Assembly (NCBI GenBank): GCA_965215195.1
Contig: CBDCDC010000002.1
Coordinates: 576,001 to 640,000, forward strand
Length of the DNA stretch: 64,000 nt
From: Candidatus Latescibacterota bacterium
GTDB taxonomy: Bacteria > Latescibacterota > UBA2968 > UBA8231
Direction: 5' to 3'
A model generated the notes under the pieces. That model was given only the letters and a program-made list of their open reading frames with translations. It ran no database searches and was not told the origin of the DNA. Positions within the stretch are counted from its first letter, which is position 1, and each line of letters starts with the position of its first letter. The translations under genes and the position numbers were made by a program. Below are positions 2,802 through 51,705 of this stretch, piece by piece.

Positions 2802-4481
2802 ATGGCGTTTGATTACTTCACCATTCAGGCCCTCGCGCAGGAGCTGCGGTCGCACCTGCAAGGGGCGGTCATCGAGCATGCCTATGCCCAGCCTACGGAA
2901 CTCGCCTTGGCGGTTGCCGAGGGCGAGTGGCTGTACGGCGCGAGCGGTCGGGAGGGCTTGCTCTGCCTGCGGCAAGAGGCGTGGCCGCGGCCTTGGCGGG
3001 CGGGCGATGGCCCGGAAAAGTATTTGGTGCGAGCGCGGATCGCGGCCGTCGAAGCCGAGCGTCGCGAGCGCATCTTGCGCTTGCGCCTAGAGCGCCGAGA
3101 CCGCAGCGGTCGCACGAGCTTTGGCGTCTTGGTGTGCGAACTCATTCCCAACAAGGTGCGGTTTGTTCTCCACCGCCAAGCCGATGGCGCGATTTTGGGC
3201 TACTGGGGCGCGGCCAAGGACAAGGCGCCTGTGGGTGCGCCGTACCAGCCGCCCGAGCCATCGGGCCGCCTGCTGCCCGGCGCGGACGCACCCAGCGCGT
3301 GGCGCGACCGGCTGGCGAGCGCGAATGCGCCCTTGGAAAAGGCAGCGCGGCGCTGGTTGGCCGGCGCGGACGCCGCGGTGGTGCGCGAGCTGATTTTCCG
3401 CAGCCAGCAGGGCGACACAGGCGAGCCGCCCGCAGCCTTGTGGAGCGCGGCCGCGGCCGCGTACACCAGCGCGGTGGCCAACCGCAGCTACGTGTGGCAA
3501 GAGGCGGGCCGATTCCATTTTTCCGCCCTTGAACCGCGCCGTTTGCAAGGGGCCTACGAGCCGTTTGACGCGGCCAGTGCCGGGATATGGGCGGCGTGCC
3601 AAAAGGAGCGGGCCCAGCGCCGGGCCCAGCGGACTCAGCAACAGATTCGCAAGCGACTGAGCCAAGCCCTGAAAAATGCCCGGCGGCGTTTGGCTGCCAT
3701 GCAGATTGAGCTCGACGAGGCCGCACGTGCCGAGGAGTACAAGCGAAAGGGCCACGCGCTATGGGCCAACATGGGGCAGCTATCTGGTCGGCCCGCGCAA
3801 GTAGAGTTGGCCGATCTCTTTGATTTAGAGGGGCACGCGACCCTGCGGATTGATTTGGATGCAAACCGCAGCTTGGCGGAAAACGCCGCGTCCTATCTAA
3901 AGACCGCGCAAAAATACGAGCGCCGCCAACAAGTCCTGCCGCAGCGCCTAGCCGCGCTCGGCCGCCAGTGCGCCCAATACGAGCATTGGATCGACGCGGT
4001 GGCGGCCGGTACTTGGGAAGCCAACGCCGCGCTGCAAAACTGGTTGGAGAGCAAGGTGACAAGCACCGACAAAACGGCAAGCAAGCAGCCCCAGGCCCAT
4101 CCCCGGCGCTACCGGACGTCCACCGGGTGGTCGGTGTGGGCCGGGCGCAACAACAAGGAAAACGACGTGCTGACGCACAAAATGGCCGCCCAAAACGATC
4201 TGTGGTTTCACGCTCGGGGGTACTCGGGCTCGCACGTCGTCCTGCGGAGCGAAGGCCGCAAGGAAGCCCCCAGCAAGCAGACGATTGAAGAGGCTGCGGC
4301 TTTAGCTGCGTATTGGAGCAAGGGCAAAACAGCGAAAAAGGTCTCTGTGGCGTACACCATGGTAAAGCACGTCACCAAGCCGCGTGGAAGTGCGCCCGGG
4401 CAGGCACTGCTGCGCCGCGAGAAAACGATCGTGGTGGAGCCAGCTTTATTAAAAAAAGAGGAAGGAGGTAGAATTGTATGA
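2802..4481 (+). CDS. rqcH: NFACT family ribosome quality control protein (RqcH/FbpA-like)
   Basis: N-terminal MAFDYFTIQAL, coiled coil, NFACT-R motif GRNNKENDVLT...DLWFHARGYSGSHVVL. Confidence 0.9.
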   Translation: MAFDYFTIQALAQELRSHLQGAVIEHAYAQPTELALAVAEGEWLYGASGREGLLCLRQEAWPRPWRAGDGPEKYLVRARIAAVEAERRERILRLRLERRDRSGRTSFGVLVCELIPNKVRFVLHRQADGAILGYWGAAKDKAPVGAPYQPPEPSGRLLPGADAPSAWRDRLASANAPLEKAARRWLAGADAAVVRELIFRSQQGDTGEPPAALWSAAAAAYTSAVANRSYVWQEAGRFHFSALEPRRLQGAYEPFDAASAGIWAACQKERAQRRAQRTQQQIRKRLSQALKNARRRLAAMQIELDEAARAEEYKRKGHALWANMGQLSGRPAQVELADLFDLEGHATLRIDLDANRSLAENAASYLKTAQKYERRQQVLPQRLAALGRQCAQYEHWIDAVAAGTWEANAALQNWLESKVTSTDKTASKQPQAHPRRYRTSTGWSVWAGRNNKENDVLTHKMAAQNDLWFHARGYSGSHVVLRSEGRKEAPSKQTIEEAAALAAYWSKGKTAKKVSVAYTMVKHVTKPRGSAPGQALLRREKTIVVEPALLKKEEGGRIV

Positions 4482-4584
4482 TGTTATCAAAATTAACCCT
4501 GTTAGAGAGGCCGGCCGCGGTTTGACGCTAGGGGCAAATCGCCCATTCTTGTACCCCTTCACCACCCCGAAAGGATGGTTTTTT

Positions 4585-6006
4585 ATGCGTTTTTCTTTGC
4601 TGTTCTCGTTTTTGTTGTTGGCTTGTAGCAATCCAGACAATCCGGTTGATTCGGGTGTCCCTGCGGCTAAGGTCGCGGTCAGCGATTGTAATGGAGACGG
4701 TCAAGTTGACTTGACGGACGCGCTGTTAGGCTGTTCGGACGGCGTGGAGTCGCCGCCTGCGGAAGAGGTGCCGCCGACGGAAGAGGTGCCGCCGACGGAA
4801 GAGGTGCCGCCGACGGAAGAGGTGCCGCCGACGGAAGAGACCCCGCCTGCGGAAGAGACCCCGCCTGCGGAAGAGTCGCCGCCTACGGAAGAGTCGCCGC
4901 CTACGGAAGAGCCGGACGGCACGGCTCAGGCTATGGAGGGCGATTGTAACGGAGACGGTCAAGTTGACTTGACAGATGTGCTGATAGGCTGTTCGGATGG
5001 GCCATCCGTGACCGCACCAGATTCGCTGACGGAAGAAAGTGCCCCGACGGAGACTCTGGGGACCCCTGAGGGAGACCGTGCCGTGCTTGAGATACTTTTC
5101 TCGACCACCGGCGGCAACCAGTGGCGTGTTCGAGATGGTTGGTTAAGCGACGAGCCATTGTATGCTTGGGCGGAAGTACGAACCGATCACAACGGGCGCG
5201 TTACCGGCCTCTACCTTAGTGCTAACGGCTTGAGAGGTCCTATCCCGCCTGAGTTAGGCCAACTGACCGAGCTAAGGGACCTACGGCTCAGCAATAATTG
5301 GTTGAGTGGTTCCATCCCGCCTGAATTAGGCCAACTAACCAACCTAGAATTGCTATATCTCAGCGGTAATCAGTTGAGAGGTCCTATCCCGCCTGAATTA
5401 GGCCAACTGACTAGGCTAAGAGAGTTCCTTTTCTACCGTAATTCGTTTAGTGGGTGCCTGCCCCCGGCGTTGTTAAACGTACCTCGTCTTGAGCCCAAGG
5501 ACTTGCCCGTTTGTACGGAAGATCCATCCGGGACGCCCCCCGATAATTCGACTGAGGGAGACCGTGCCGTGCTTGAGGCTCTTTTCTTGGCCACAGGCGG
5601 CAACCAGTGGCGTATTCGAGACGGTTGGTTAAGCGACGCGCCGTTGTCTGCTTGGGAGGGAGTATCAACCGATGCAAACGGGCGCGTTATCGGCCTCTAC
5701 CTTCATGGTAACGGCTTGAGTGGTTTTATCCCGCCTGCGTTAGGCCAACTGACCAACCTAAGGGATCTATGGCTCCACGATAATCAGTTGAGTGGTTCCA
5801 TTCCGCCTGAATTAGGCCAACTGACCAACCTAAGACGCCTATATCTCAGCGGTAATCAGTTGAGTGGTTTTATCCCGCCTGCGTTAGGCCAACTGAGTAT
5901 TCTAAAAGAGTTCCTTTTCTATGGTAATTGGTTGAGTGGGTGCATACCCCGGGCGTTGTTAAACGTACCTCGTCTTGAGCCCAAGGACTTGCCCGTTTGC
6001 CGATAG
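4585..6006 (+). CDS. Leucine-rich repeat lipoprotein 1 (two dockerin/EF-hand-like motifs, PPTEE linker, two LRR modules)
   Basis: Lipobox LLLAC after ATG 4585; DCNGDGQVDLTD x2; 24-aa plant-type LRR (LxLxxNxLSGxIPPELGQLT) with N-caps. Confidence 0.88.
   Translation: MRFSLLFSFLLLACSNPDNPVDSGVPAAKVAVSDCNGDGQVDLTDALLGCSDGVESPPAEEVPPTEEVPPTEEVPPTEEVPPTEETPPAEETPPAEESPPTEESPPTEEPDGTAQAMEGDCNGDGQVDLTDVLIGCSDGPSVTAPDSLTEESAPTETLGTPEGDRAVLEILFSTTGGNQWRVRDGWLSDEPLYAWAEVRTDHNGRVTGLYLSANGLRGPIPPELGQLTELRDLRLSNNWLSGSIPPELGQLTNLELLYLSGNQLRGPIPPELGQLTRLREFLFYRNSFSGCLPPALLNVPRLEPKDLPVCTEDPSGTPPDNSTEGDRAVLEALFLATGGNQWRIRDGWLSDAPLSAWEGVSTDANGRVIGLYLHGNGLSGFIPPALGQLTNLRDLWLHDNQLSGSIPPELGQLTNLRRLYLSGNQLSGFIPPALGQLSILKEFLFYGNWLSGCIPRALLNVPRLEPKDLPVCR
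4750..4915 (+). repeat. 18-bp coding tandem repeat (PP[T/A]EE[V/T/S])
   Basis: Units such as ccgccgacggaagaggtg, about 9 copies; related arrays at about 6285-6465 and 6560-6615. Confidence 0.9.
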
Positions 6007-6090
6007 CGCGGTCGGTGTGCGGTAAGAAAGCGGTGTCCGTGTCGGTGCATGGACGTCGTTCAGTTTTGAGTTGGGCTCGTTATGTCAAAC
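6007..6090 (+). repeat. Duplicated LRR 3' region plus miaA leader (second copy at 7949-8050)
   Basis: gcggtcggtgtgcggtaagaaagcggtgtccgtgtcggtgcatggacg is identical in both copies; both end ggctcgttatg(t/g)caaac. Confidence 0.9.
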
Positions 6091-6118
6091 TCTTCACCAC
6101 CACGTAAGGAGGTTTTTT

Positions 6119-7948
6119 ATGCGTTTTTTTCTGCTGTTCTCGTTTTTGTTGTTGGCTTGTAGCAATCCAGACAATCCGGTTGATTCGGGTGTCCCTGCGG
6201 CTAAGGTCGCGCTTGACGATTGTAACGGAGACGGTCGGGTTGACTTGACGGACGCGCTGTTAGGCTGTTCGGACGGCGTGGAGTCGCCGCCGACGGAAGA
6301 GACCCCGCCTGCGGAAGAGACCCCGCCTGCGGAAGAGGTGTCCCCGACGGAAGAGGCACCGCCGACGGAAGAGGCACCGCCGACGGAAGAGGCACCGCCT
6401 GCGGAAGAGACCCCGCCGACAGAAGAGACCCCGCCGACAGAAGAGACCCCGCCTGCGGAAGAGCCGGACGGCACGGCTCAGGCTGTGGAGGGCGATTGTA
6501 ACGGAGACGGTCAAGTTGACTTGACGGACGCGCTGTTAGGCTGTTCGGACGGCGTGGAGTCGCCGACGGAAGAGACCCCGCCTGCGGAAGAGGCGCCGCC
6601 TGCGGAAGAGGCGCCGCTCGCTGGGACCCCTGAGGGAGACCGTGCCGTGCTTGAGGCTTTTTTCTCGGCCACAAGCGGCCACAAGTGGGGTAGTCGAGGC
6701 GGTTGGTTAAGCGACGAGCCGTTGTCTGCTTGGGAGGGAGTAACAACCGATGCAAACGGGCGCGTTACCCGCCTTGATCTCAGCGAGAATTTTTTGAGAG
6801 GTTCCATCCCGCCTGCCTTAGGCCAACTGACCAGCTTAGAAGAGCTATATCTCAACAGTAATCAGTTGAGTGGTTCCATCCCGTCTGCCTTAGGCCAACT
6901 GACCAACCTAAGCACCCTATCTCTCAGCGAGAATTTTTTGAGTGGTTCTATCCCGTCTTTCTTAGGCCAACTGACCAACTTAGAAGAGCTATCTCTCTAC
7001 AATAATCAGTTGAGTGGTTCTATCCCGCCTGAATTAGGCCAACTGACCAACCTAAGCACTCTACGGCTCAGCGGTAATCGTCGGTTGAGTGGTTCTATCC
7101 CGCCTGCGTTAGGCCAACTGACCAACTTAGAACATCTATCTCTCAGCGGTAATCGGTTGAGTGGTTCTATCCCGCCTGAATTAGGCCAACTGACCAGCTT
7201 AGAAGGGCTATATCTCAGCGGTAATCAGTTGATTGGTTCTATCCCGCCTGCGTTAGGCCAACTGACCAACTTAGAATATCTATCTCTCCGCGATAATCTT
7301 TTGAGTGGTTCTATCCCGCCTGCGTTAGGCCAACTAACCAACTTAGAAGGGCTATATCTCCGCGATAATCGGTTGAGTGGTTCCATCCCGTCTGCGTTAG
7401 GCCAACTGACCAACCTAAGCACCCTATCTCTCCGCGATAATCTTTTGAGTGGTTCCATCCCGTCTGCGTTAGGCCAACTGACCAACTTAGAAGAGCTATC
7501 TCTCAGCGGTAATCAGTTGATTGGTTCTATCCCGCCTGCGTTAGGCCAACTGACCAACTTAGAAGAGCTATCTCTCAGCGGTAATCGGTTGATTGGTTCT
7601 ATCCCGCCTGAATTAGGCCAACTGACCAACCTAAGACTCCTATCTCTCGTCAATAATCAGTTGAGTGGTTCTATCCCGCCTGAATTAGGCCAACTGACCA
7701 GCTTAGAAAGGCTATCTCTCGGCGGTAATTGGTTGAGTGGTTCTATCCCGCCTGCGTTAGGCCAACTGACCAACTTAGAATATCTATCTCTCCGCTATAA
7801 TCAGTTGAGTGGTTCCATCCCGCCTGAATTAGGCCAACTGACCCACTTAGAATATCTATCTCTCCGCGATAATCAGTTTGGGTGCATACCCCCGGAGTTG
7901 TTAAACGTGCCTCGTCTCGAGTGGGGGAACTTGCCCGTTTGCCCATAG
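6119..7948 (+). CDS. Leucine-rich repeat lipoprotein 2 (16 LRRs)
   Basis: SD AAGGAGG 6106-6112; lipobox LLLAC; N-terminus nearly identical to LRR1; 16 tandem repeats of about 72 bp. Confidence 0.9.
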   Translation: MRFFLLFSFLLLACSNPDNPVDSGVPAAKVALDDCNGDGRVDLTDALLGCSDGVESPPTEETPPAEETPPAEEVSPTEEAPPTEEAPPTEEAPPAEETPPTEETPPTEETPPAEEPDGTAQAVEGDCNGDGQVDLTDALLGCSDGVESPTEETPPAEEAPPAEEAPLAGTPEGDRAVLEAFFSATSGHKWGSRGGWLSDEPLSAWEGVTTDANGRVTRLDLSENFLRGSIPPALGQLTSLEELYLNSNQLSGSIPSALGQLTNLSTLSLSENFLSGSIPSFLGQLTNLEELSLYNNQLSGSIPPELGQLTNLSTLRLSGNRRLSGSIPPALGQLTNLEHLSLSGNRLSGSIPPELGQLTSLEGLYLSGNQLIGSIPPALGQLTNLEYLSLRDNLLSGSIPPALGQLTNLEGLYLRDNRLSGSIPSALGQLTNLSTLSLRDNLLSGSIPSALGQLTNLEELSLSGNQLIGSIPPALGQLTNLEELSLSGNRLIGSIPPELGQLTNLRLLSLVNNQLSGSIPPELGQLTSLERLSLGGNWLSGSIPPALGQLTNLEYLSLRYNQLSGSIPPELGQLTHLEYLSLRDNQFGCIPPELLNVPRLEWGNLPVCP

Positions 7949-22518: not shown

Positions 22519-22546
22519 ATGTCTTATAAGGATGATTATGTCAATC
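22519..22546 (+). other. dif-like site S1
   Basis: ATGTCTTATAA-GGATGA-TTATGTCAATC; fills the asnS/leuS gap and overlaps the leuS ATG. Confidence 0.6.
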
Positions 22547-25420
22547 AAAAAAAAAGGCCAATACAATTTCCAAGCCATCGAAACCAAATGGCGATCTCAC
22601 TGGGCGCAGGAGAAGACCTATCAAACGCTGGGACCGGGGGATCCCGGCTTCGATAACAGCAAACCCAAGTGCTACATCCTCGATATGTTTCCCTATTCAA
22701 GCGGCGCCGGGTTGCACATCGGCCATCCCAAAGGGTATATCGCCAGCGACATTTACAGCCGCTACAAAAGGATGTGGGGGTTTAACGTCCTGCACCCGAT
22801 GGGGTTCGACAGTTTTGGATTGCCGGCCGAGCAATACGCCATCGAACACAATGTCCATCCAGCGACCTTTACCGAGCAGAATATCGCTGCGATGCGCAGC
22901 CAATTGCAGTTTCTCGGGCTGTCGTTTGACTGGGCTCGCGAAGTGGTCACGTCGCGGCCGTCGTATTACCGCTGGACGCAGTGGATTTTCGCCCAACTCT
23001 TCGATAGCTATTTCGACGCAGACGAAATCTGGGAAGACGGCAATGGACGCCAAATAAAGGGGCGGACCAAGCCCATCGCCGACTTAGAGGCGCAATTTGC
23101 GGCCGGCCGGGCCTTGTCGGCCACAGATCGCCAAGTTCTTGGCAGCGACGCGGTTTGGTCTGCACTAACCGAGGCCGAGCACCAAACGGTGCTGAATAAC
23201 TACCGGCTGGCGTACCAGCAAGAGGCTGTCGTCAACTGGTGCCCTCGCTTGGGCACTGTGTTGGCCAACGAGGAGGTGACCAGCGAGGGCCGCAGCGAGC
23301 GGGGCAATTTTCCCGTGTATCGCAAACCGTTGCGGCAATGGACGATGCGCATAACAGCCTACGCCGAGCGGCTCTTAGAGGACTTGGACCTTGAACTGGA
23401 AGACCGCGCTGGCGAGCCCTTCCGGATCGATTGGCCAGAACCCATCAAGCGGATGCAGCGCAACTGGATCGGCCGCAGCGAAGGGGCTGAAGTGCGCTTC
23501 GATGTCCTCGATCCGCAAAGCGACGTGGTCGCCGCGCAGTTGCCCGTGTTCACCACCCGGCCCGACACGCTCTTTGGGGCGACTTTTATGGCCATTGCCC
23601 CTCAGCATCCGCTGGTAGATCCTGCCAAAGAATCCTACTTGGTCCCCAAGGCTTGGCCCGACGGGACGCCCGAACAGTGGAAGGGGGGAGGGGACCTCAT
23701 CCGGGAAGCCGTAGCCCAGTACGTAGCTCAAACGGCCGTCTCCACCGCGGATGAAACCAAGGAAAAAACGGGCATTTTCTCCGGCATCTACGCCCGCAAT
23801 CCGGTCAATGGACAAAAAATCCCCATTTTCGTCGCCGACTACGTCAGCATGGACTACGGCGCGGGAGCCATTATGGCGGTGCCGGCCCACGACGAGCGCG
23901 ACTTTGCCTTCGCCATCACGTATAACTTGGATATTGTGCGGGTGGTTGATGGGGGGGAAGGGGAGGCCGCAGGGTGGTATGCCGGGGAGGGAATCGCCAT
24001 CAATTCGCCTTCAGTACTCGCCAGCGATAGTCCATACACCATTAACGGATTGGCGACGGCCGCGGCCAAAGACCAGATCGTCGCTGCACTCGCTGCCCAA
24101 GGGCGAGGCCAAGCTGCGGTAAACTACAAACTGCGCGACTGGACCTTTGCTCGGCAGCGCTATTGGGGAGAACCCTTTCCACTGGCCACGCATCCCGATG
24201 GATATTCCGTCAAAGTCACGCCTCCGGTGGCGCTACCGGCACTAGAGGACTTCAGGCCGGAGACCTCGGATGACCCCGCCCAACCCGTTTCTCCGCCGCT
24301 GCACCGGGCCGGAGCGGAGTGGACGACGGTGGAAATTGACGGGGTGGCCTGCCAACGCGATCTCAACGTCATGCCCCAATGGGCCGGTTCTTGCTGGTAC
24401 TATCTCCGCTTTATCGATCCGCACAACGAAGAAGCCTTCTGCGACCCGGCCAAGGAGGGCTACTTCATGCCCGTTGATCTCTACATCGGCGGTGCGGAAC
24501 ACGCGGTGTTGCACTTGCTCTACGCCCGGTTTTGGCACAAGGCCCTCTACGACTTAGGCCACGTATCCACGCCCGAGCCGTTTAAGAAGCTGTTCAATCA
24601 AGGCATGATGACCGCGGATGCCTTTCAGGACGAGCGCGGCGTGTATATCGACATTCGGGAGGTTGAGTTCCGCGACGGGGAGCCTGTTGAGAAGGGGACG
24701 GGCAAGACGCTGCATCGGTCTTCTGGCAAGATGGGCAAACGCTACAAAAACGGATTGCCGCCCGAAGAAGTCGGCGAGGAATTTGGCGTGGATACCCTGC
24801 GGCTGTACGAAATGTACATGGGGCCGCTCGAAGCGAGTGCGCCGTGGAGCATGGAAGGCATTCGCGGGATGCAGCGCTTTTTGCAGCGCATTTGGCGCAA
24901 CTTTGTCGATTCGGATCGACAGGTGAAAATAGGGGAGAGTGCTGCGTTAGTGCCGGAGTTGGAACGCAAGCTGCACCAAACCATCCAAAAGGTAACTGAG
25001 GACATAGAAGGGCTGCGGTTTAATACGGCTATTGCCACCTTGATCGAGCTAAACAACCTGTTGGTCCCCTTGGACGAGGTGCCGCAGGCCGTCGCCAAGC
25101 CCTTCTTGCTCTTGCTCGCGCCCTTTGCTCCGCATATTGCCGAGGAGCTATGGGAGTTGGCGAATTTTGGGAAGGGAGACCTCAATCGTCAGAGCTGGCC
25201 TGACTGGGATGCCGCAAAAGCCGCCGAGGACATGATCGTAGTGCCCATTCAGGTCAACGGCAAAATGCGCGGACAAGTCGAAGTGCCGGTCCACACCGGA
25301 GAGGACGAGATAAAGTCCTTGGTGCTCGCCATGGCGAGCATCCGCAAATACGTGGCCGATGAAACGGCGATAAAGCGGTTTATATGGGTGCCGGATAGAA
25401 TCGTCAATATCGTGGTGTAG
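22538..25420 (+). CDS. leuS: Leucyl-tRNA synthetase
   Basis: MFPYSSGAGLHIGH, FTTRPDT editing domain, GGAEHAVLHLLYARF, KMGKR; start could be 22532. Confidence 0.97.
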   Translation: MSIKKKGQYNFQAIETKWRSHWAQEKTYQTLGPGDPGFDNSKPKCYILDMFPYSSGAGLHIGHPKGYIASDIYSRYKRMWGFNVLHPMGFDSFGLPAEQYAIEHNVHPATFTEQNIAAMRSQLQFLGLSFDWAREVVTSRPSYYRWTQWIFAQLFDSYFDADEIWEDGNGRQIKGRTKPIADLEAQFAAGRALSATDRQVLGSDAVWSALTEAEHQTVLNNYRLAYQQEAVVNWCPRLGTVLANEEVTSEGRSERGNFPVYRKPLRQWTMRITAYAERLLEDLDLELEDRAGEPFRIDWPEPIKRMQRNWIGRSEGAEVRFDVLDPQSDVVAAQLPVFTTRPDTLFGATFMAIAPQHPLVDPAKESYLVPKAWPDGTPEQWKGGGDLIREAVAQYVAQTAVSTADETKEKTGIFSGIYARNPVNGQKIPIFVADYVSMDYGAGAIMAVPAHDERDFAFAITYNLDIVRVVDGGEGEAAGWYAGEGIAINSPSVLASDSPYTINGLATAAAKDQIVAALAAQGRGQAAVNYKLRDWTFARQRYWGEPFPLATHPDGYSVKVTPPVALPALEDFRPETSDDPAQPVSPPLHRAGAEWTTVEIDGVACQRDLNVMPQWAGSCWYYLRFIDPHNEEAFCDPAKEGYFMPVDLYIGGAEHAVLHLLYARFWHKALYDLGHVSTPEPFKKLFNQGMMTADAFQDERGVYIDIREVEFRDGEPVEKGTGKTLHRSSGKMGKRYKNGLPPEEVGEEFGVDTLRLYEMYMGPLEASAPWSMEGIRGMQRFLQRIWRNFVDSDRQVKIGESAALVPELERKLHQTIQKVTEDIEGLRFNTAIATLIELNNLLVPLDEVPQAVAKPFLLLLAPFAPHIAEELWELANFGKGDLNRQSWPDWDAAKAAEDMIVVPIQVNGKMRGQVEVPVHTGEDEIKSLVLAMASIRKYVADETAIKRFIWVPDRIVNIVV

Positions 25421-25442
25421 GAGGTAAGTGTGCGGCGATAAT

Positions 25443-25470
25443 AAGTCTTATAAAATTTTTTATGTAAATA
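25443..25470 (+). other. dif-like site S2
   Basis: AAGTCTTATAA-AATTTT-TTATGTAAATA; right arm resembles the XerD arm of B. subtilis dif (TTATGTAAACT). Confidence 0.7.
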
Positions 25471-25492
25471 AAAAACAAAGACAAAAAACCCC

Positions 25493-26473
25493 TCAGCTAC
25501 CAATACCAATCCTAATATAATCCGACGCATTATCGAGCAGTTTATCGCGGTTCTCGTAGTAGCGCATGGTCGTCTTTAGATCCTTGTGGCGCAAATGGGC
25601 TTGCACCTGCTGGGGCTTGGCCCCGCCTTCAATCGCCAAGGTGCAGCAGGTGTGGCGGAACATGTGCGCGGTGACGTTTTGGGGGAGGCCGGCGCGCAGG
25701 GCGTACTTCTTGACGATGTGATTTACCGACTGATCGGTTAGTGGCTGGCCGCGAGACTGGTTGCGCGACAGGCTGATGAAAACCTTGCCCGTCGTCGGCA
25801 AGCCCGCTGCTCGTAGTTGTTGTTTGTATAGTTCGAGATGATGCAGGACGACGCTTTGCAGTTTGATTTCCTGCGCCATGCCCGATTTAGTCTGGGGCAG
25901 GTGCAAAATGTAAAAGACGCCCTCCAAAGATATATCCTCCCAAGCGACGCCCGCCACTTCGGAGCGGCGCAGCCCACCGAAAGTGAGCAACTGAAACATA
26001 GCCGCATCGCGCGTACGGACCAAGTCGTCTTTTTCCTCGGCAATGGCTTGCTGGATCTTGTTCAGCACCTGATTGGAAAGTGCTTTGCCGGCCAGCGTTT
26101 CATCTACCTTGTAACCGCGCACCAAGGTGGAGTCGGCGGGATTTTTCTCGATGTGGCCCAAGGCGACCAACATCTTGAAGAACGACTTTAGGCTGGATAA
26201 TTTTCTGTTGATGCTGCTGCGCTTGTAACCTTCGCTGGCGAGTTGGTTTCTAAAGGCGACCACGTGCTCAAAGGTGATTGACTGCAAGACAGCGAGGGAC
26301 ACTTTATCCAGTTCCAAGCCGATAGATAAAAAGAAATGCTGGAGATCGGCGTAATAGGCACGCCGGGTGCGCTCGCTGAGCTGGCCGCTGAGAAATTGTT
26401 CCAAAGGATCGTCTGACGCCACCGCGGGTGTTGGCGTCAGACTGCGGACGACCGGAGTGAGTGTGCGGCTCAT
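25493..26473 (-). CDS. Xer-like tyrosine recombinase
   Basis: SAM-like N-domain (TRRAYYADL, SINRKLSSLKSFF); catalytic R (GLRRSE), K (TKSG), HMFRH, HLRH, Y (MRYY). Confidence 0.93.
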   Translation of the reverse strand: MSRTLTPVVRSLTPTPAVASDDPLEQFLSGQLSERTRRAYYADLQHFFLSIGLELDKVSLAVLQSITFEHVVAFRNQLASEGYKRSSINRKLSSLKSFFKMLVALGHIEKNPADSTLVRGYKVDETLAGKALSNQVLNKIQQAIAEEKDDLVRTRDAAMFQLLTFGGLRRSEVAGVAWEDISLEGVFYILHLPQTKSGMAQEIKLQSVVLHHLELYKQQLRAAGLPTTGKVFISLSRNQSRGQPLTDQSVNHIVKKYALRAGLPQNVTAHMFRHTCCTLAIEGGAKPQQVQAHLRHKDLKTTMRYYENRDKLLDNASDYIRIGIGS

Positions 26474-26596
26474 TGAATATGCTTACAGGGGCTAAAGGTC
26501 TGAGGCATTAAATATCCGGGATGTTCTTAACAGTGGCTAAAGAATAGAGTAAATATAGCGAACATCGCGGCATTTTGCTGTCGATTCGCCTAGACA

Positions 26597-26632
26597 TTAT
26601 ACTACCGATAACAGGCATTATCGGTAGTATAA
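26597..26632. other. Perfect 15-6-15 palindrome, putative recombination/binding site of the adjacent recombinase
   Basis: TTATACTACCGATAA-CAGGCA-TTATCGGTAGTATAA. Confidence 0.75.
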
Positions 26633-26654
26633 ATCGTAAAAAAATAAAAGTCAA
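26626..26654 (-). promoter_or_regulatory. Sigma70 promoter of the recombinase, overlapping the palindrome
   Basis: TTGACT-17 bp-TATACT on the minus strand. Confidence 0.7.
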
Positions 26655-26893
26655 TGAGAGCGAGACAAAGACATGTAACGTCGGCTGGATTGGTCTGTTG
26701 GTGTTGGCCTTGGTTTCGGTGTGGCGTGGTTTCCTTGGCGGCGCGTCAGCTTCTCGCTGCGTCAAGGCATCGAACTGTCATACAAATATGCCTCCAACGT
26801 TCCGCCGAAGCCCGAACTTGACCATTCACATAGGTTTTCCTTGGGCGTTCCGTCTATGCGCCTACTTGCGCTCGTCCATTTTTAGTTGCAGCC

Positions 26894-28666
26894 CTATAAC
26901 TTCTGCAACAAACGCTCCATATCGCGCAACTTCATCCGCGCCATGATCGGCTTGTCCGTCGGGCTTATGTGCGGCCGGTCAACCTTGAGCAATTCGTCGA
27001 TCAAATGCGCCATTGCCTCGGCGTTCAGTTTCTGCCCCTTCTTGATACTCGCTTTGCGCGCATAAGCCAAGACGAGTGCTTCGCGCCAAGATCGGCCCGA
27101 ATGCTGGCCATCGCGCACGTCGTTCAATAGCTGATAAAAAGCATCGCCTTCGCCAAAGCGATCCAATTCGGCGGGCATTGCCTCCACCAACACCGTCCGC
27201 GTACCAAAATCCCGCACGCCAAAGCCCAGCTTGGCAATGTCGGCCCGCACTTGCTCGAAGACCGCAAAATCCGCTGCGCCCATTTCTAGCTGGATGGGAA
27301 AGAGCAACTGCTGACTCTCGCCAGCCACGCCGTCCATTTGCGCCATGGCCCGATCGTAGTTGATGCGCTCGTGCGCGGCCTGCTGATCGACGAAGAGCAA
27401 GCCGTCGGCAACCTCGACGAGGATGTACTGGTTGTGGACCTGCCACATCGCGGCGTTTTCGACCAAGGCGACTTTGGCCGCGGCCGGGGCGACGAAGGTC
27501 AAGGCGAGTTCGTCGTCTGCACCGTGGGTTGCTGCTACCGCGGACTCGCCAGGTGCGGCCGGGCTGTGCAACACCGGCGACGCTGGTTCGCCCACGCGGG
27601 CCGTAGCACTGGGAGGTGTGCTGTCCGGCCGCATTGGGGCCGCAGCATAGACAAAGGATTGCACATCGGGCAGCCTGAGCTTCTGCCGGACGCTGTCTTC
27701 AATGGCCGCGATGACCTGCCCTTCGTTGGCCAAGCGAATCTCCCGCTTTGTCGGATGGACATTGACATCGATCTTCTTGGGATCCATATCGATCCAGAGC
27801 ATGAATACCGGATGGTGTCCTTCGGGCAGCAGCCCCTCAAAACACCGCTGTACAGCACTGGCCATCAGTCGCGAAGAAATGGGCCGCCCCTGTACGATGA
27901 GGTACTGCTTGCCCTTGCTCCGGCCGCAGTGCTCAGGACCAGCCAAGACGCCTTCGATTTTGAGGCCCTCTTCCTCATAAGCGAGATCCAACAGTTCGGC
28001 GGCTGGATCAGCCCGGCCTCGCATGCCCAACAACTCGGCCGCCCGCTCCCGACGAGGTGCCGGGGCGTAGCTCAATACTTGGTGCGCTTGGTGCGCTAGT
28101 TCAAAGCCAAGGGCCGGGTAACCGGCGGCTAAATGAATGATGGTCTGGGCCACGTGCCGGGCTTCCGCCTCGACGGAGCGGAGGAATTTGCGCCGCGCCG
28201 GCGTATTAAAAAACAAGTTCTTTACCGCGATAGTCGTGCCGCGTACGCGGCCCATGCTGTGCATCTCTCGCTCTATGCCCCCTTCCACGACCAAGCGCGT
28301 CCCGACTTCGTCTTGCTGGGTGCGCGATTCTATCGCCAAGTGAGCCACCGCCCCAATGCTGGCTAGCGCCTCGCCGCGAAATCCCAGCGTCTGAATGCGA
28401 AATAGGTCGGCCACCGAGGCCATCTTGCTCGTGGCATGACGGCGCACACACAAAGCGATATCCTCCCTGTTCATGCCCGATCCATCGTCGGTCACCACAA
28501 TCGACTGCTTGCCACCGGCCTTAATTTCCACGCGGATTTTAGCAGCGCCCGCATCGATCGAGTTTTCGACCAATTCCTTCACGACCGAGGCCGGCCGTTC
28601 CACCACCTCGCCAGCGGCAATTTTGCCAATGAGACTTTCGTCGAGAACGCGAATGGTACTCGCCAT
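26894..28666 (-). CDS. mutL: DNA mismatch repair endonuclease MutL
   Basis: IAAGEVVERPASVVKELVENSIDAG, GFRGEAL, DVNVHPTK, DQQAAHER. Confidence 0.97.
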   Translation of the reverse strand: MASTIRVLDESLIGKIAAGEVVERPASVVKELVENSIDAGAAKIRVEIKAGGKQSIVVTDDGSGMNREDIALCVRRHATSKMASVADLFRIQTLGFRGEALASIGAVAHLAIESRTQQDEVGTRLVVEGGIEREMHSMGRVRGTTIAVKNLFFNTPARRKFLRSVEAEARHVAQTIIHLAAGYPALGFELAHQAHQVLSYAPAPRRERAAELLGMRGRADPAAELLDLAYEEEGLKIEGVLAGPEHCGRSKGKQYLIVQGRPISSRLMASAVQRCFEGLLPEGHHPVFMLWIDMDPKKIDVNVHPTKREIRLANEGQVIAAIEDSVRQKLRLPDVQSFVYAAAPMRPDSTPPSATARVGEPASPVLHSPAAPGESAVAATHGADDELALTFVAPAAAKVALVENAAMWQVHNQYILVEVADGLLFVDQQAAHERINYDRAMAQMDGVAGESQQLLFPIQLEMGAADFAVFEQVRADIAKLGFGVRDFGTRTVLVEAMPAELDRFGEGDAFYQLLNDVRDGQHSGRSWREALVLAYARKASIKKGQKLNAEAMAHLIDELLKVDRPHISPTDKPIMARMKLRDMERLLQKL

Positions 28667-28672
28667 ATATCC

Positions 28673-29197
28673 TCACAACTCGGCCCAGAGCCGCTCGGCC
28701 TGCTGCCGGAATTCGGCTTGGGTAATTTTGCCTTGTTTGAGCGCGGTTTCCAAGTCGCGCAAGCGGCGGCGCGGCCCCCCGCCCCCTTTGAGATCCAGCC
28801 GTATTTGGGACCAGATGTGCCACCCCCCCACGCCGAGCAACAAGGCCATGAAGACCGCCCCTACCCACCACGAGGTATCTTGCTCGTGGCGCACCGCTCC
28901 CCCCTTTTGTCGCCAATCTTCGGCCACGGCTGGGTCAGGCTCGGCCAGCGCGATCCGCTTGGCCAGTGCCGCGCCGTTGGTCCCTTGGACGCGCACGGCC
29001 CTTTTGAGCTGCCAAGTAAATCCCCGGGGTTGCACGATTAGATACTCGATGAGATCGGCCTTTCTTATCTGATCGAACTGCTCCCTAGTAACCGGCACGA
29101 TCATTGGGCTGAGCATATTGAACAGCAACACGATTGCTAACAAGAAGCTCGCTAAGCCGAGAGCGAAGTATGTGGGCGGTGTGGATGACTTTTTCAT
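28673..29197 (-). CDS. Two-TM membrane protein with C-terminal SHOCT-like domain
   Basis: Two hydrophobic helices; LRDLETALKQGKITQAEFRQQ. Confidence 0.7.
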   Translation of the reverse strand: MKKSSTPPTYFALGLASFLLAIVLLFNMLSPMIVPVTREQFDQIRKADLIEYLIVQPRGFTWQLKRAVRVQGTNGAALAKRIALAEPDPAVAEDWRQKGGAVRHEQDTSWWVGAVFMALLLGVGGWHIWSQIRLDLKGGGGPRRRLRDLETALKQGKITQAEFRQQAERLWAEL

Positions 29198-29201
29198 TCT
29201 T

Positions 29202-29229
29202 TGTTTACATAAAAAATTTTATTGGACAT
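29202..29229 (-). other. dif-like site S3
   Basis: Minus strand ATGTCCAATAA-AATTTT-TTATGTAAACA; same spacer as S2, inverted. Confidence 0.7.
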
Positions 29230-34264: not shown

Positions 34265-34777
34265 TTAATAAACGATAGCGCTTGCCAATTTGTACCCGTG
34301 CAAGAGGCGGCGGCCCGACAGAAAGCTCAATTCGGCCAAAACGCTGATGCCGGCGACAACGGCCCCGAGTTTTTCGAGCACTTGACACGTTGCCGCCAAG
34401 GTCCCGCCGGTGGCCAAAACGTCATCCACGACCAATACCTTTTGCCCCGGTGCTACGGCATCAGTGTGTATTTCTAAGGCCGTCTCGCCGTATTCGAGCG
34501 CGTAGGCGCGGCGCAGCGTGGCTGCCGGTAGCTTACCCGGTTTGCGCATTGGAACAAAACCGCATCCCAATTCGAGGGCGATGGGCACCGCGAACACAAA
34601 CCCGCGGGCCTCTATGCCGACGACTAGGTCCACTTCGGCTTCCGCAAAGGGTTCGAGCATGGTTTGGACCGCGGCCGATAAACCAGCCGGGTCTTTGAGC
34701 AGTGGCGTGATGTCTTTGTATGAGACGCCGTCTTGCGGGAAATTGGGGATTTCGCGGATGAGGTCTTTTAGGCTCAT
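34265..34777 (-). CDS. apt: Adenine phosphoribosyltransferase
   Basis: GIEARGF, RKPGKLP, YALEYG, VDDVLATGGT. Confidence 0.96.
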   Translation of the reverse strand: MSLKDLIREIPNFPQDGVSYKDITPLLKDPAGLSAAVQTMLEPFAEAEVDLVVGIEARGFVFAVPIALELGCGFVPMRKPGKLPAATLRRAYALEYGETALEIHTDAVAPGQKVLVVDDVLATGGTLAATCQVLEKLGAVVAGISVLAELSFLSGRRLLHGYKLASAIVY

Positions 34778-34803
34778 TTTACATATTATAATTTATAAGT
34801 CTT
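34776..34803 (-). other. dif-like site S4
   Basis: Minus strand AAGACTTATAA-ATTATA-ATATGTAAAAT; fills the gap between the small gene and apt. Confidence 0.6.
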
Positions 34804-51677: not shown

Positions 51678-51705
51678 TATTTACATATTAATCTTTATAT
51701 GGCGT
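51678..51705 (-). other. dif-like site S5
   Basis: Minus strand ACGCCATATAA-AGATTA-ATATGTAAATA, overlapping the mcrC stop. Confidence 0.5.

Follow-up and report, generated by a model that had tools for sequence, protein, structure and literature searches.

Why would a bacterium that encodes XerD, a XerC-like protein and FtsK keep one more tyrosine recombinase, with a palindrome beside its gene, at the place where replication of the chromosome ends? The question is raised by a 64,000-nucleotide stretch of DNA from a Candidatus Latescibacterota bacterium (contig CBDCDC010000002.1, here C2, positions C2:576001-640000; hereafter the window), in which the gene for a 326-residue tyrosine recombinase, denoted REC (25493-26473, minus strand; identified as an open reading frame and by Pfam), lies next to a palindrome denoted P (26597-26632, or C2:602597-602632). 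To our knowledge, chromosome dimer resolution has been thought to come either as XerCD with dif or as a single recombinase that replaces XerCD. The reading developed here, to which we give not quite even confidence, is that REC and P may form a self-contained recombinase-plus-site module of the loxP or difSL kind, one that a chromosomal dif module holds as cargo and that acts at the terminus alongside XerCD.

A tyrosine recombinase and the palindrome beside it

P reads TTATACTACCGATAA-CAGGCA-TTATCGGTAGTATAA, i.e. two 15-nucleotide arms that are 100% complementary and stand 6 nucleotides apart, and the inner ends of its arms give the arrangement ATAA-N6-TTAT. A gap of 123 nucleotides separates P from the ATG of REC. 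These features had been picked out by a first-pass annotation made from the letters alone, which described a perfect 15-6-15 palindrome with an ATAA-N6-TTAT core about 125 bp upstream of the recombinase, and on all three counts the description is accurate. P is the sole perfect inverted repeat of at least 15 nucleotides among 12 short-loop pairs in the window, and its exact arm occurs at its own two places only, both in the window (chance expectation 0.39 at up to three mismatches) and across the 6.13-Mb genome.

The conserved part of P is an 11-6-11 core, in the window ACTACCGATAA-CAGGCA-TTATCGGTAGT (26601-26628, no strand). REC has orthologs at 58-94% identity. Of 62 loci fetched, four unrelated weak matches (L068-L071) and the truncated L063 were left out, and in the 57 analysed, with the best-matching site reported for each, a site of the form ACTAnCGATAA-N6-TTATCGnTAGT accompanies REC in 54; the co-occurrence of palindrome and orthologs, proposed as a check by the first-pass annotation, is thereby borne out. 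Twelve of these sites carry no substitution, 24 carry one and 12 carry two (48 with no more than two), and the other six carry three to five. The site is missing at L038, L043 and L059, the last of which offers just 126 bp upstream. Across 52 loci the arms vary little or not at all at 18 of their 22 positions, the spacer is variable, and the flanks of P, unlike its arms, cannot be aligned between distant relatives.

The two arms also change together. In the 52 loci 84.2% of cells are complementary, and double-sided arm changes number 45, compared to 23.2 +/- 3.5 after shuffling (0 of 500 shuffles reaching 45), although relatedness inflates such numbers. Symmetric co-variation of this sort would fit one protein reading both arms. 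Arm positions 5-7 are non-complementary in 17-22 of the 52 loci, with the outer and inner positions fixed, and these mismatches appear to suit protein half-sites better than an obligatory hairpin stem.

In 48 of the 54 loci P lies 58-299 bp upstream of REC, and in the remaining six it lies 472 to 3990 bp away. The farthest sites are those of L047 and L046 (2496 and 3990 bp), where genes for a response regulator and a histidine kinase intervene, so that P has been kept where it is unable to be an operator of REC. In these two loci, which belong to one genus, the intervening genes occupy 99-3746 of L046 and 500-2578 of L047 and are divergent from REC; the L046 insertion also holds two open reading frames without Pfam matches.

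P-like sites with no more than three mismatches are present in 44 of 50 family genomes that have REC and in 2 of 15 that lack it (the reversed-pattern control gave 0-1 per genome), counts which are confounded by the relatedness of the genomes and are suggestive only. Considering the linkage of gene and site, their co-occurrence, the dif- or lox-type layout, the symmetric arms and the persistence of P away from the promoter, we infer, and most firmly of all that is proposed here, that P is probably REC's own site.

REC itself can be placed in the tyrosine recombinase superfamily by its domains and catalytic residues. It matches Phage_integrase (PF00589, 1e-27) and Phage_int_SAM_1 (PF02899, 2.6e-11), the latter being the SAM-like N-terminal core-binding domain; R169, H270, R273, H296 and Y305 align with catalytic residues in XerC and XerD of the same genome, and these five together with K196 are invariant in 24 family members. 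Assignment as an equivalog of XerC, XerD, XerS or XerA was rejected, every score being far under the curated NCBIfam cut-off: 137 bits against 335 for XerC (TIGR02224), 126 against 330 for XerD (TIGR02225), 114.4 against 220 for archaeal XerA (NF040815) and 79.7 against 267 for XerS (NF003462). The NCBIfam hits of REC included no XerH model. The closest solved structure by phmmer is E. coli XerD (1a0p, 67.5 bits), and XerH (5jjv) is weak at 28.2 bits. An AlphaFold2 model of REC has a mean predicted local distance difference test score of 76.5, falling below 50 in the C-terminal residues 275-326, which are the most conserved part; the top Foldseek matches to this model were lambda Int, XerA, XerD, Tn1549 Int and Cre, in which kinship with Xer proteins, Cre and integrases is not separated, and a search of a protein atlas returned generic tyrosine recombinase clusters only.

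Among 151 Latescibacterota genomes sampled, strong matches to REC (at least 59% identity) are confined to the window's own GTDB family, in which 49 of the 64 other genomes have it in one copy each; other families gave matches of about 30% only. Throughout the family the gene is present once, in a syntenic place flanked by mutL and leuS, and it evolves as slowly as LeuS. Over the same family genomes REC retains 59-94% identity, compared to 45-92% for XerD and 37-96% for the XerC-like protein. Being as conserved as LeuS and more so than XerC and XerD, REC seems to serve a housekeeping task rather than to be selfish cargo.

The first-pass annotation had also placed P between face-to-face promoters and suggested that the recombinase represses itself by binding its own crossover site. 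On the minus strand, towards REC, the sigma-70-like promoter TTGACT-17-TATACT is in place (26654-26649 / 26631-26626), with 10 of 12 positions matching and the -10 element formed by the outer end of a P arm, yet one such site was found in 1.7 kb where shuffles give 1.6, no more than chance. On the plus strand TTGCTG (26575-26580) does stand 17 bp from a TATACT, but this first hexamer has 3 of 6 matches and the pair is absent from the output of the promoter scan. A TTGAC -35 lies upstream of P in only 4 of 52 orthologous loci, and this, together with the six loci in which P is 472-3990 bp away, leaves the case for autorepression weak; it is possible in this genome and is not a conserved role.

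Inverted dif-like sites and a flipping cassette at the terminus

The cumulative GC skew of contig C2 peaks at 26741 (C2:602741), 109 bp from P, and this global maximum is taken as the replication terminus; the minimum is at C2:3523388, beside dnaA (C2:3523847-3525187). In all 10 single-contig relatives measured (G001-G005, G065, G153, G140, G096 and G154), which include two other genera, REC is 0.467-0.50 chromosome lengths from dnaA. The expectation of the first-pass annotation that the palindrome and the recombinase orthologs would sit at GC-skew termini therefore holds by skew in the window's own chromosome and, by the place of REC opposite dnaA, in these 10 complete relatives.

Around P the window contains five sites of a different class. 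An exhaustive mismatch count of the pattern GTCTTATAA-N6-TTATGTAAA over the whole genome returned five sites at no more than three mismatches, all in the window, at 22521 (+), 25445 (+), 29204 (-), 34778 (-) and 51680 (-); at four mismatches the reversed-pattern control equals the pattern, so only these five are counted. S2 (25443-25470, plus), between the stop codons of leuS and REC, has the canonical form AAGTCTTATAA-AATTTT-TTATGTAAATA, and S3 (29202-29229, minus) is inverted with respect to it. The outer sites are S1 (22519-22546, plus, spacer GGATGA), in the orientation of S2, and S4 (34776-34803, minus) and the weaker S5 (51678-51705, minus, three mismatches), both in the orientation of S3. 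All five thus fall within 29 kb and point inward at the skew switch, those left of P being plus-oriented and those right of it minus-oriented, and only the inner pair, S2 and S3, shares an identical spacer (AATTTT). Of their two arms, the right one, TTATGTAAA, is of the widespread XerD type, and the left one resembles XerC arms such as ATTTCGTATAA and TTATGTTAATT of the Acinetobacter pdif sites given in an excerpt of PMC13141974. The arms of S1-S5 differ from those of P, as the first-pass annotation had noted in proposing two coexisting site classes.

Three relatives from other families, which lack REC, each have a single S-class site at the terminus: G012 (family f2, site 1184832) at 0.486 of the chromosome from dnaA, G033 (f2, 2003966) at 0.472 and G062 (f3, 2764445) at 0.473. 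Dimer resolution would seem, on this evidence, to need no REC. Since XerD and the XerC-like protein are conserved and an S-class site lies opposite dnaA in genomes without REC, the S sites are best read as ordinary XerCD dif sites. The S1-S5 cluster could represent several sites for XerCD, or else sites at which XerD binds and which have a polar role near the end of replication. In a portion of PMC12322038, XerD is cited as a sequence-specific unloader of SMC at the terminus. The arrangement is like that of Bacillus subtilis XerCD and dif with extra XerD sites, in that dif-like sites with a conserved XerD arm surround the terminus, whereas the S sites also keep a genome-specific XerC-type arm and their inner pair recombines. 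Extra XerD-binding sites are reportedly found near the B. subtilis terminus (work of Karaboja, 2021).

S2 and S3 bound a cassette, REC-P-mutL-orf174 (25471-29201), with their XerD-type arms directed inward. In most ortholog loci a minus-oriented S site is found just past the REC stop, at +930 to +1060; the upstream, plus-oriented site is about 2.5 kb off in close relatives, beyond mutL and orf174, and 210-700 bp from REC in distant relatives, just outside P. Among close relatives, with synteny called by tblastn, the cassette exists in both orientations: 15 loci including the window have orf312 > orf262 > [orf174 > mutL > P > REC] < leuS (state A), and 10 have leuS > [orf174 > mutL > P > REC] < orf262 < orf312 (state B); the orientation of L030 could not be told. 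The breakpoints between the two states coincide with S sites. On the REC gene tree, whose 27 rows are the window and 26 loci (L027 and L030 excluded), there are at least six changes of state, and the starred sisters L024/L025 and L020/L023 differ. All 24 distant loci in which both neighbours are visible have REC and are in state A.

A D module of Acinetobacter Rep_3/OrfX plasmids is bounded by inverted XerC/XerD sites with the XerD sites internal, and XerCD inversion between inverted sites with identical spacers is documented in these plasmids, both according to an excerpt of PMC13141974. The window's cassette is like these modules in its inward XerD arms, in the identical AATTTT spacer of S2 and S3 and in its flipping among relatives, and by this anatomy and by its inversion, judged between genomes and not within one sample, it would qualify as a D-type dif module. 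Unlike them, it is chromosomal, lies at the terminus and is kept vertically across the family in one slot between mutL and leuS; no transfer of the cassette between replicons was seen. The cargo also differs, consisting of a recombinase and its own putative site (with mutL in this genus), whereas D modules carry resistance or toxin-antitoxin genes.

The spacer of P has a history of its own. Relative to REC it is either of the CAGGCA type or of the reverse-complement TGCCTG type, with arms and flanks unmoved; L061 and the window, for instance, have common flanks on both sides of P and opposite spacers. This orientation changes at least three times on the REC tree, e.g. between the sisters L019 and L026, and is independent of the state of the cassette. 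Public sequencing data were compared as Logan contigs from four runs (X1, X17, X18 and X20). In two of them, X18 and X20, a contig with a near-perfect REC side (in X20, 4 differing letters in 1100) enters P and continues with the spacer opposite to that of the window, which, coming from contigs, does not by itself establish both forms within one sample. Hairpin-mediated template switching can yield symmetric arms and a flipping loop; for the flips of the P spacer, the bolder alternative would be a recombinase acting at a site whose arms are identical.

One X1 contig covers the whole stretch in the window's orientation, and contigs of X17, X18 and X20 end at P, S2 and S3. Between 26612 and 26681 there is a further discontinuity, as contigs of the last three runs that join the mutL side at 26681 disagree with the window over more than 250 letters. 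In X17, X18 and X20 the stretch from P to the mutL 3' region may therefore have been replaced at strain level.

The neighbours of the module are housekeeping genes, and together with REC they converge at the terminus: on the left, on the plus strand, PNPase, an Asn/Asp-type class II tRNA synthetase and LeuS; on the right, on the minus strand, REC, MutL, HPr kinase and RsgA. The mutL gene (26894-28666, minus; Pfam MutL_C, DNA_mis_repair and HATPase_c_3) is inside the cassette in this genus. No phage or integrative and conjugative element cargo was found near REC among the window open reading frames scanned, in agreement with what the first-pass annotation had observed.

Possible roles of the recombinase at the terminus

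How might these parts work together? P would be the core recombination site of REC, with an asymmetric 6-bp crossover spacer between two near-identical 11-bp arms that would each take one REC monomer. REC and P would constitute a single-recombinase module, the cargo between two inverted XerC/XerD dif sites with the XerD arms inside; recombination between the inner dif sites S2 and S3 would flip the cassette, and the place of the module between two dif sites would hold it at the terminus. We infer that REC binds P and recombines it there, with an outcome to match: at the end of replication it would act on the P sites of sister chromosomes, in dimer resolution or unlinking, parallel to XerCD-dif. 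Site-specific exchange between sister termini is the most likely task of REC, being the one most in keeping with its place and anatomy.

Single-recombinase systems offer the nearest comparison. Linkage of gene and site as a 'single module' is described as the hallmark of the XerS and XerH systems in a passage of PMC5357621, which gives difSL an 11-bp centre and unequal arms. REC and P are like XerS/difSL and XerH/difH in having one tyrosine recombinase gene beside its own presumed site at the terminus. XerS and XerH replace XerCD, however, whereas REC coexists with XerD and a XerC-like protein; in sequence REC falls well short of the XerS model (79.7 against 267 bits) and has a weak match of 28 bits to XerH structures, and P has a 6-bp spacer and identical arms in place of the difSL design. 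The site loxP has a 13-8-13 layout and serves in plasmid dimer resolution, and Cre acts on it without a partner recombinase. The likeness of REC and P to Cre/loxP of phage P1 lies in the symmetric arms, the short asymmetric spacer and the site beside the recombinase gene; the differences are that REC is not Cre-like in sequence, that P is 11(15)-6-11(15) with dif-type ATAA/TTAT inner ends, and that it resides at a chromosomal terminus. Among the papers listed by literature searches, and as judged by titles and abstract openings, none describes such an arrangement of REC, P and a dif cassette.

Several observations weigh against this reading. The skew stays within 150 counts of its maximum over C2:597925-605397, some 7.5 kb that also hold S1-S3, so the skew fixes the neighbourhood and cannot single out P. 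No recombination was seen to have its breakpoint at P, nor was there, in the 12 loci scanned, a second copy of P flanking the DNA inserted between P and REC, and the counts of P-like sites with REC carry the confounding noted above. The genome encodes XerD (346.7 bits, above its NCBIfam cut-off of 330), a XerC-like protein (318.3 bits, just under its cut-off of 335) and FtsK with a gamma domain, along with the canonical dif-like sites, which would make a second resolution system redundant. Two complete family genomes, G066 and G084, are without REC and P and have a Cre-like recombinase, REC2, in the same leuS-mutL slot, so that REC must be dispensable or replaceable. P-like sites also exist away from the terminus in several genomes, some of them flanking promoter-bearing elements, and the main task of REC may be elsewhere. 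What keeps our confidence just short of the halfway mark is that REC would be redundant with XerCD-dif, that REC2 can take its place and that P-like sites exist elsewhere.

The last of these points can be turned into a reading of its own, in which the main work of REC, as a recombinase or regulator acting at P sites, would be at other loci, and its gene and an autoregulatory P ride in the cassette as cargo, domesticated or selfish, that plays no part in chromosome resolution. Extra P-like sites are well above control in G140 (9), G083 (11) and G132 (10), the reversed pattern giving 0, and G065 has three perfect sites; P-flanked promoter elements of about 180 bp stand by genes for surface and solute-binding proteins, one of them in this genome; the architecture of the cassette is like that of mobile dif modules as portrayed in part of PMC13141974; and an alternative recombinase holds the slot in G066 and G084. 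Yet REC is single-copy, syntenic and as slow as LeuS, unlike selfish cargo, and the window's own genome has only two further P-like sites. At the solute-binding-protein locus all seven copies of this element (own genome and five relatives) are in one orientation, none being inverted, and there would be no explanation of why the gene and the best site stay at the terminus in every genus; we consider a purely elsewhere-directed REC unlikely. Assigning REC to the cassette itself, as an invertase that acts on the inverted S sites alone or with XerC/D while P is merely an operator or accessory binding site, appears quite improbable. Invertase genes are often in or beside their invertible segment, as the REC gene is inside the flipping one, and the shared AATTTT spacer of S2 and S3 in this genome would suit such a role. 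The S sites, however, are of canonical XerC-arm/XerD-arm make-up with arms unlike those of P, a single S-type site is at the terminus of the REC-less G012, G033 and G062 and an inverted S pair at that of the REC-less G066, and the 24 distant loci with both neighbours visible show no flip in spite of REC; XerCD inversion between inverted sites with identical spacers is, moreover, documented for Acinetobacter plasmids in the excerpt of PMC13141974.

A further reading dissociates the two elements, with P bound by another protein, such as a transcription factor or terminus-specific factor, or acting as a hairpin or cruciform, and sharing no more than its location with REC. The perfect 15-bp arms do fold strongly, at -12.7 kcal/mol as single-stranded DNA (z = -6.08, with 0 of 200 shuffles equal), co-varying arms and a flipping loop match the template-switching mechanism, and P-like sites beside promoters resemble operators. 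What makes this distinctly hard to credit is the pattern within the arms, mismatched at positions 5-7 where a stem should pair and fixed at the outer and inner positions, together with the absence of any Rfam match in 25300-27000 and of a terminator-like tail at P, the near absence of P-like sites from genomes without REC, and an 11-6-11 ATAA/TTAT design that is the layout of Xer-type sites. The first-pass annotation had favoured a stand-alone, non-XerCD dimer resolution module, by which REC and P would replace XerCD in the manner of XerS or XerH and REC would repress itself at the crossover site. The terminus position, the linkage of gene and site and the overlap of the REC promoter with P in this genome all speak for it; but of 71 family genomes 68 have a XerD ortholog and 63 a XerC-like one, FtsK gamma is likewise present and conserved, as are the canonical dif-like sites next to the module, the promoter arrangement is kept in 4 of 52 loci only, and P is kilobases from REC in some genomes, so that replacement is very improbable indeed. 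Of that interpretation the co-occurrence, the terminus, the non-mobile setting and the two site classes survive; the replacement of XerCD is not supported, nor is autorepression as more than a possibility in this genome.

Returning to the module acting alongside XerCD, a bolder form of it can be drawn, one we would call rather doubtful: a two-layer terminus device, with a XerCD-flippable cassette of inverted dif sites outside and, inside, REC and a loxP-like P giving XerCD-independent resolution or unlinking of sisters, the flips of the P spacer being its footprint. At this terminus both kinds of dimer-resolution parts are nested, and recombination at the outer sites is shown by natural genomes. 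Should REC act at P, then bacteria are able to add to XerCD another resolution or unlinking system that is complete in itself, and dif modules, known from resistance plasmids, would exist also as stable chromosomal features. As a case from nature, the locus lets one ask how inverted dif sites are tolerated in a chromosome, and REC with its 28-bp symmetric site is a compact candidate tool.

Other recombinases and further palindromic sites

The window's genome encodes four tyrosine recombinases, REC and three others, none of which adjoins REC; besides XerD and the XerC-like protein there is a fourth that scores weaker. The description of REC as a 'lone' recombinase is therefore correct in that no partner gene adjoins it, though not for the genome as a whole.

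REC2 has the look of a recombinase from a mobile element that has come to rest in the leuS-mutL slot. The G066 and G084 proteins are 64% identical to each other, and REC2 is 24% identical to REC. Of 71 family genomes 9 have REC2, which exists in multiple copies in genus g10 and occurs together with REC in G138; this multi-copy state and co-occurrence rule it out as a strict alternative to REC. At the G066 locus (L079, G066:C1:1052600-1062700, about 5010-6143) two inverted dif-like sites are just 48 bp apart, and REC2 is adjoined by a palindrome of its own, which overlaps a TTGACA-17-TATAAT promoter. The G084 locus (L080, G084:C1:1831000-1841000, 3962-5003) has the near-palindromic TTTACATAA-GAAATA-TTATGTGAA, made up of two XerD-type arms.

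The elements of about 180 bp mentioned above consist of a P-like site, a promoter-like segment (TTGACA-17-TAAATT or TAAGTT) and an inverted P-like half or full site. One is in the window's own genome (C2:779934-780114, L085) and others are in G140 (L083, L089 and L090), and they adjoin genes for a solute-binding protein, a surface protein with leucine-rich repeats and a type IX secretion system sorting domain, and a dynamin-like GTPase. With P-like inverted pairs flanking promoter segments, their anatomy may be called inverton-like; P at the terminus is a single copy with no inverted partner there.

A secondary P-like site of the window's own genome, ACTCCCGATAA-GGGATA-TTATCGGGAAT (C2:1669663-1669690, L072), lies between two open reading frames without Pfam matches. 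Variants of this type recur in G122, G150 and G088 (in the last twice, in opposite orientations), and a GGGGCA-type spacer is found in G147 and G096. Two perfect P-type sites of G065, at G065:C1:191343 and 4492316 (L074 and L075), differ in their spacers; one is by an IS110-family transposase, and the other, 44 kb from dnaA, is by fragments of helicase and Eco57I-like methylase genes. Finally, fully palindromic 28-mers of the form GTAGGG(C/A)ATAA-CGATCG-TTAT(G/T)CCCTAC are dispersed over about 15 places of the window's own genome, e.g. C2:234972, 1005865, 1521348 and 2711165 and C1:1151657; they have the ATAA-N6-TTAT layout but a palindromic spacer, and form a site class distinct from P.

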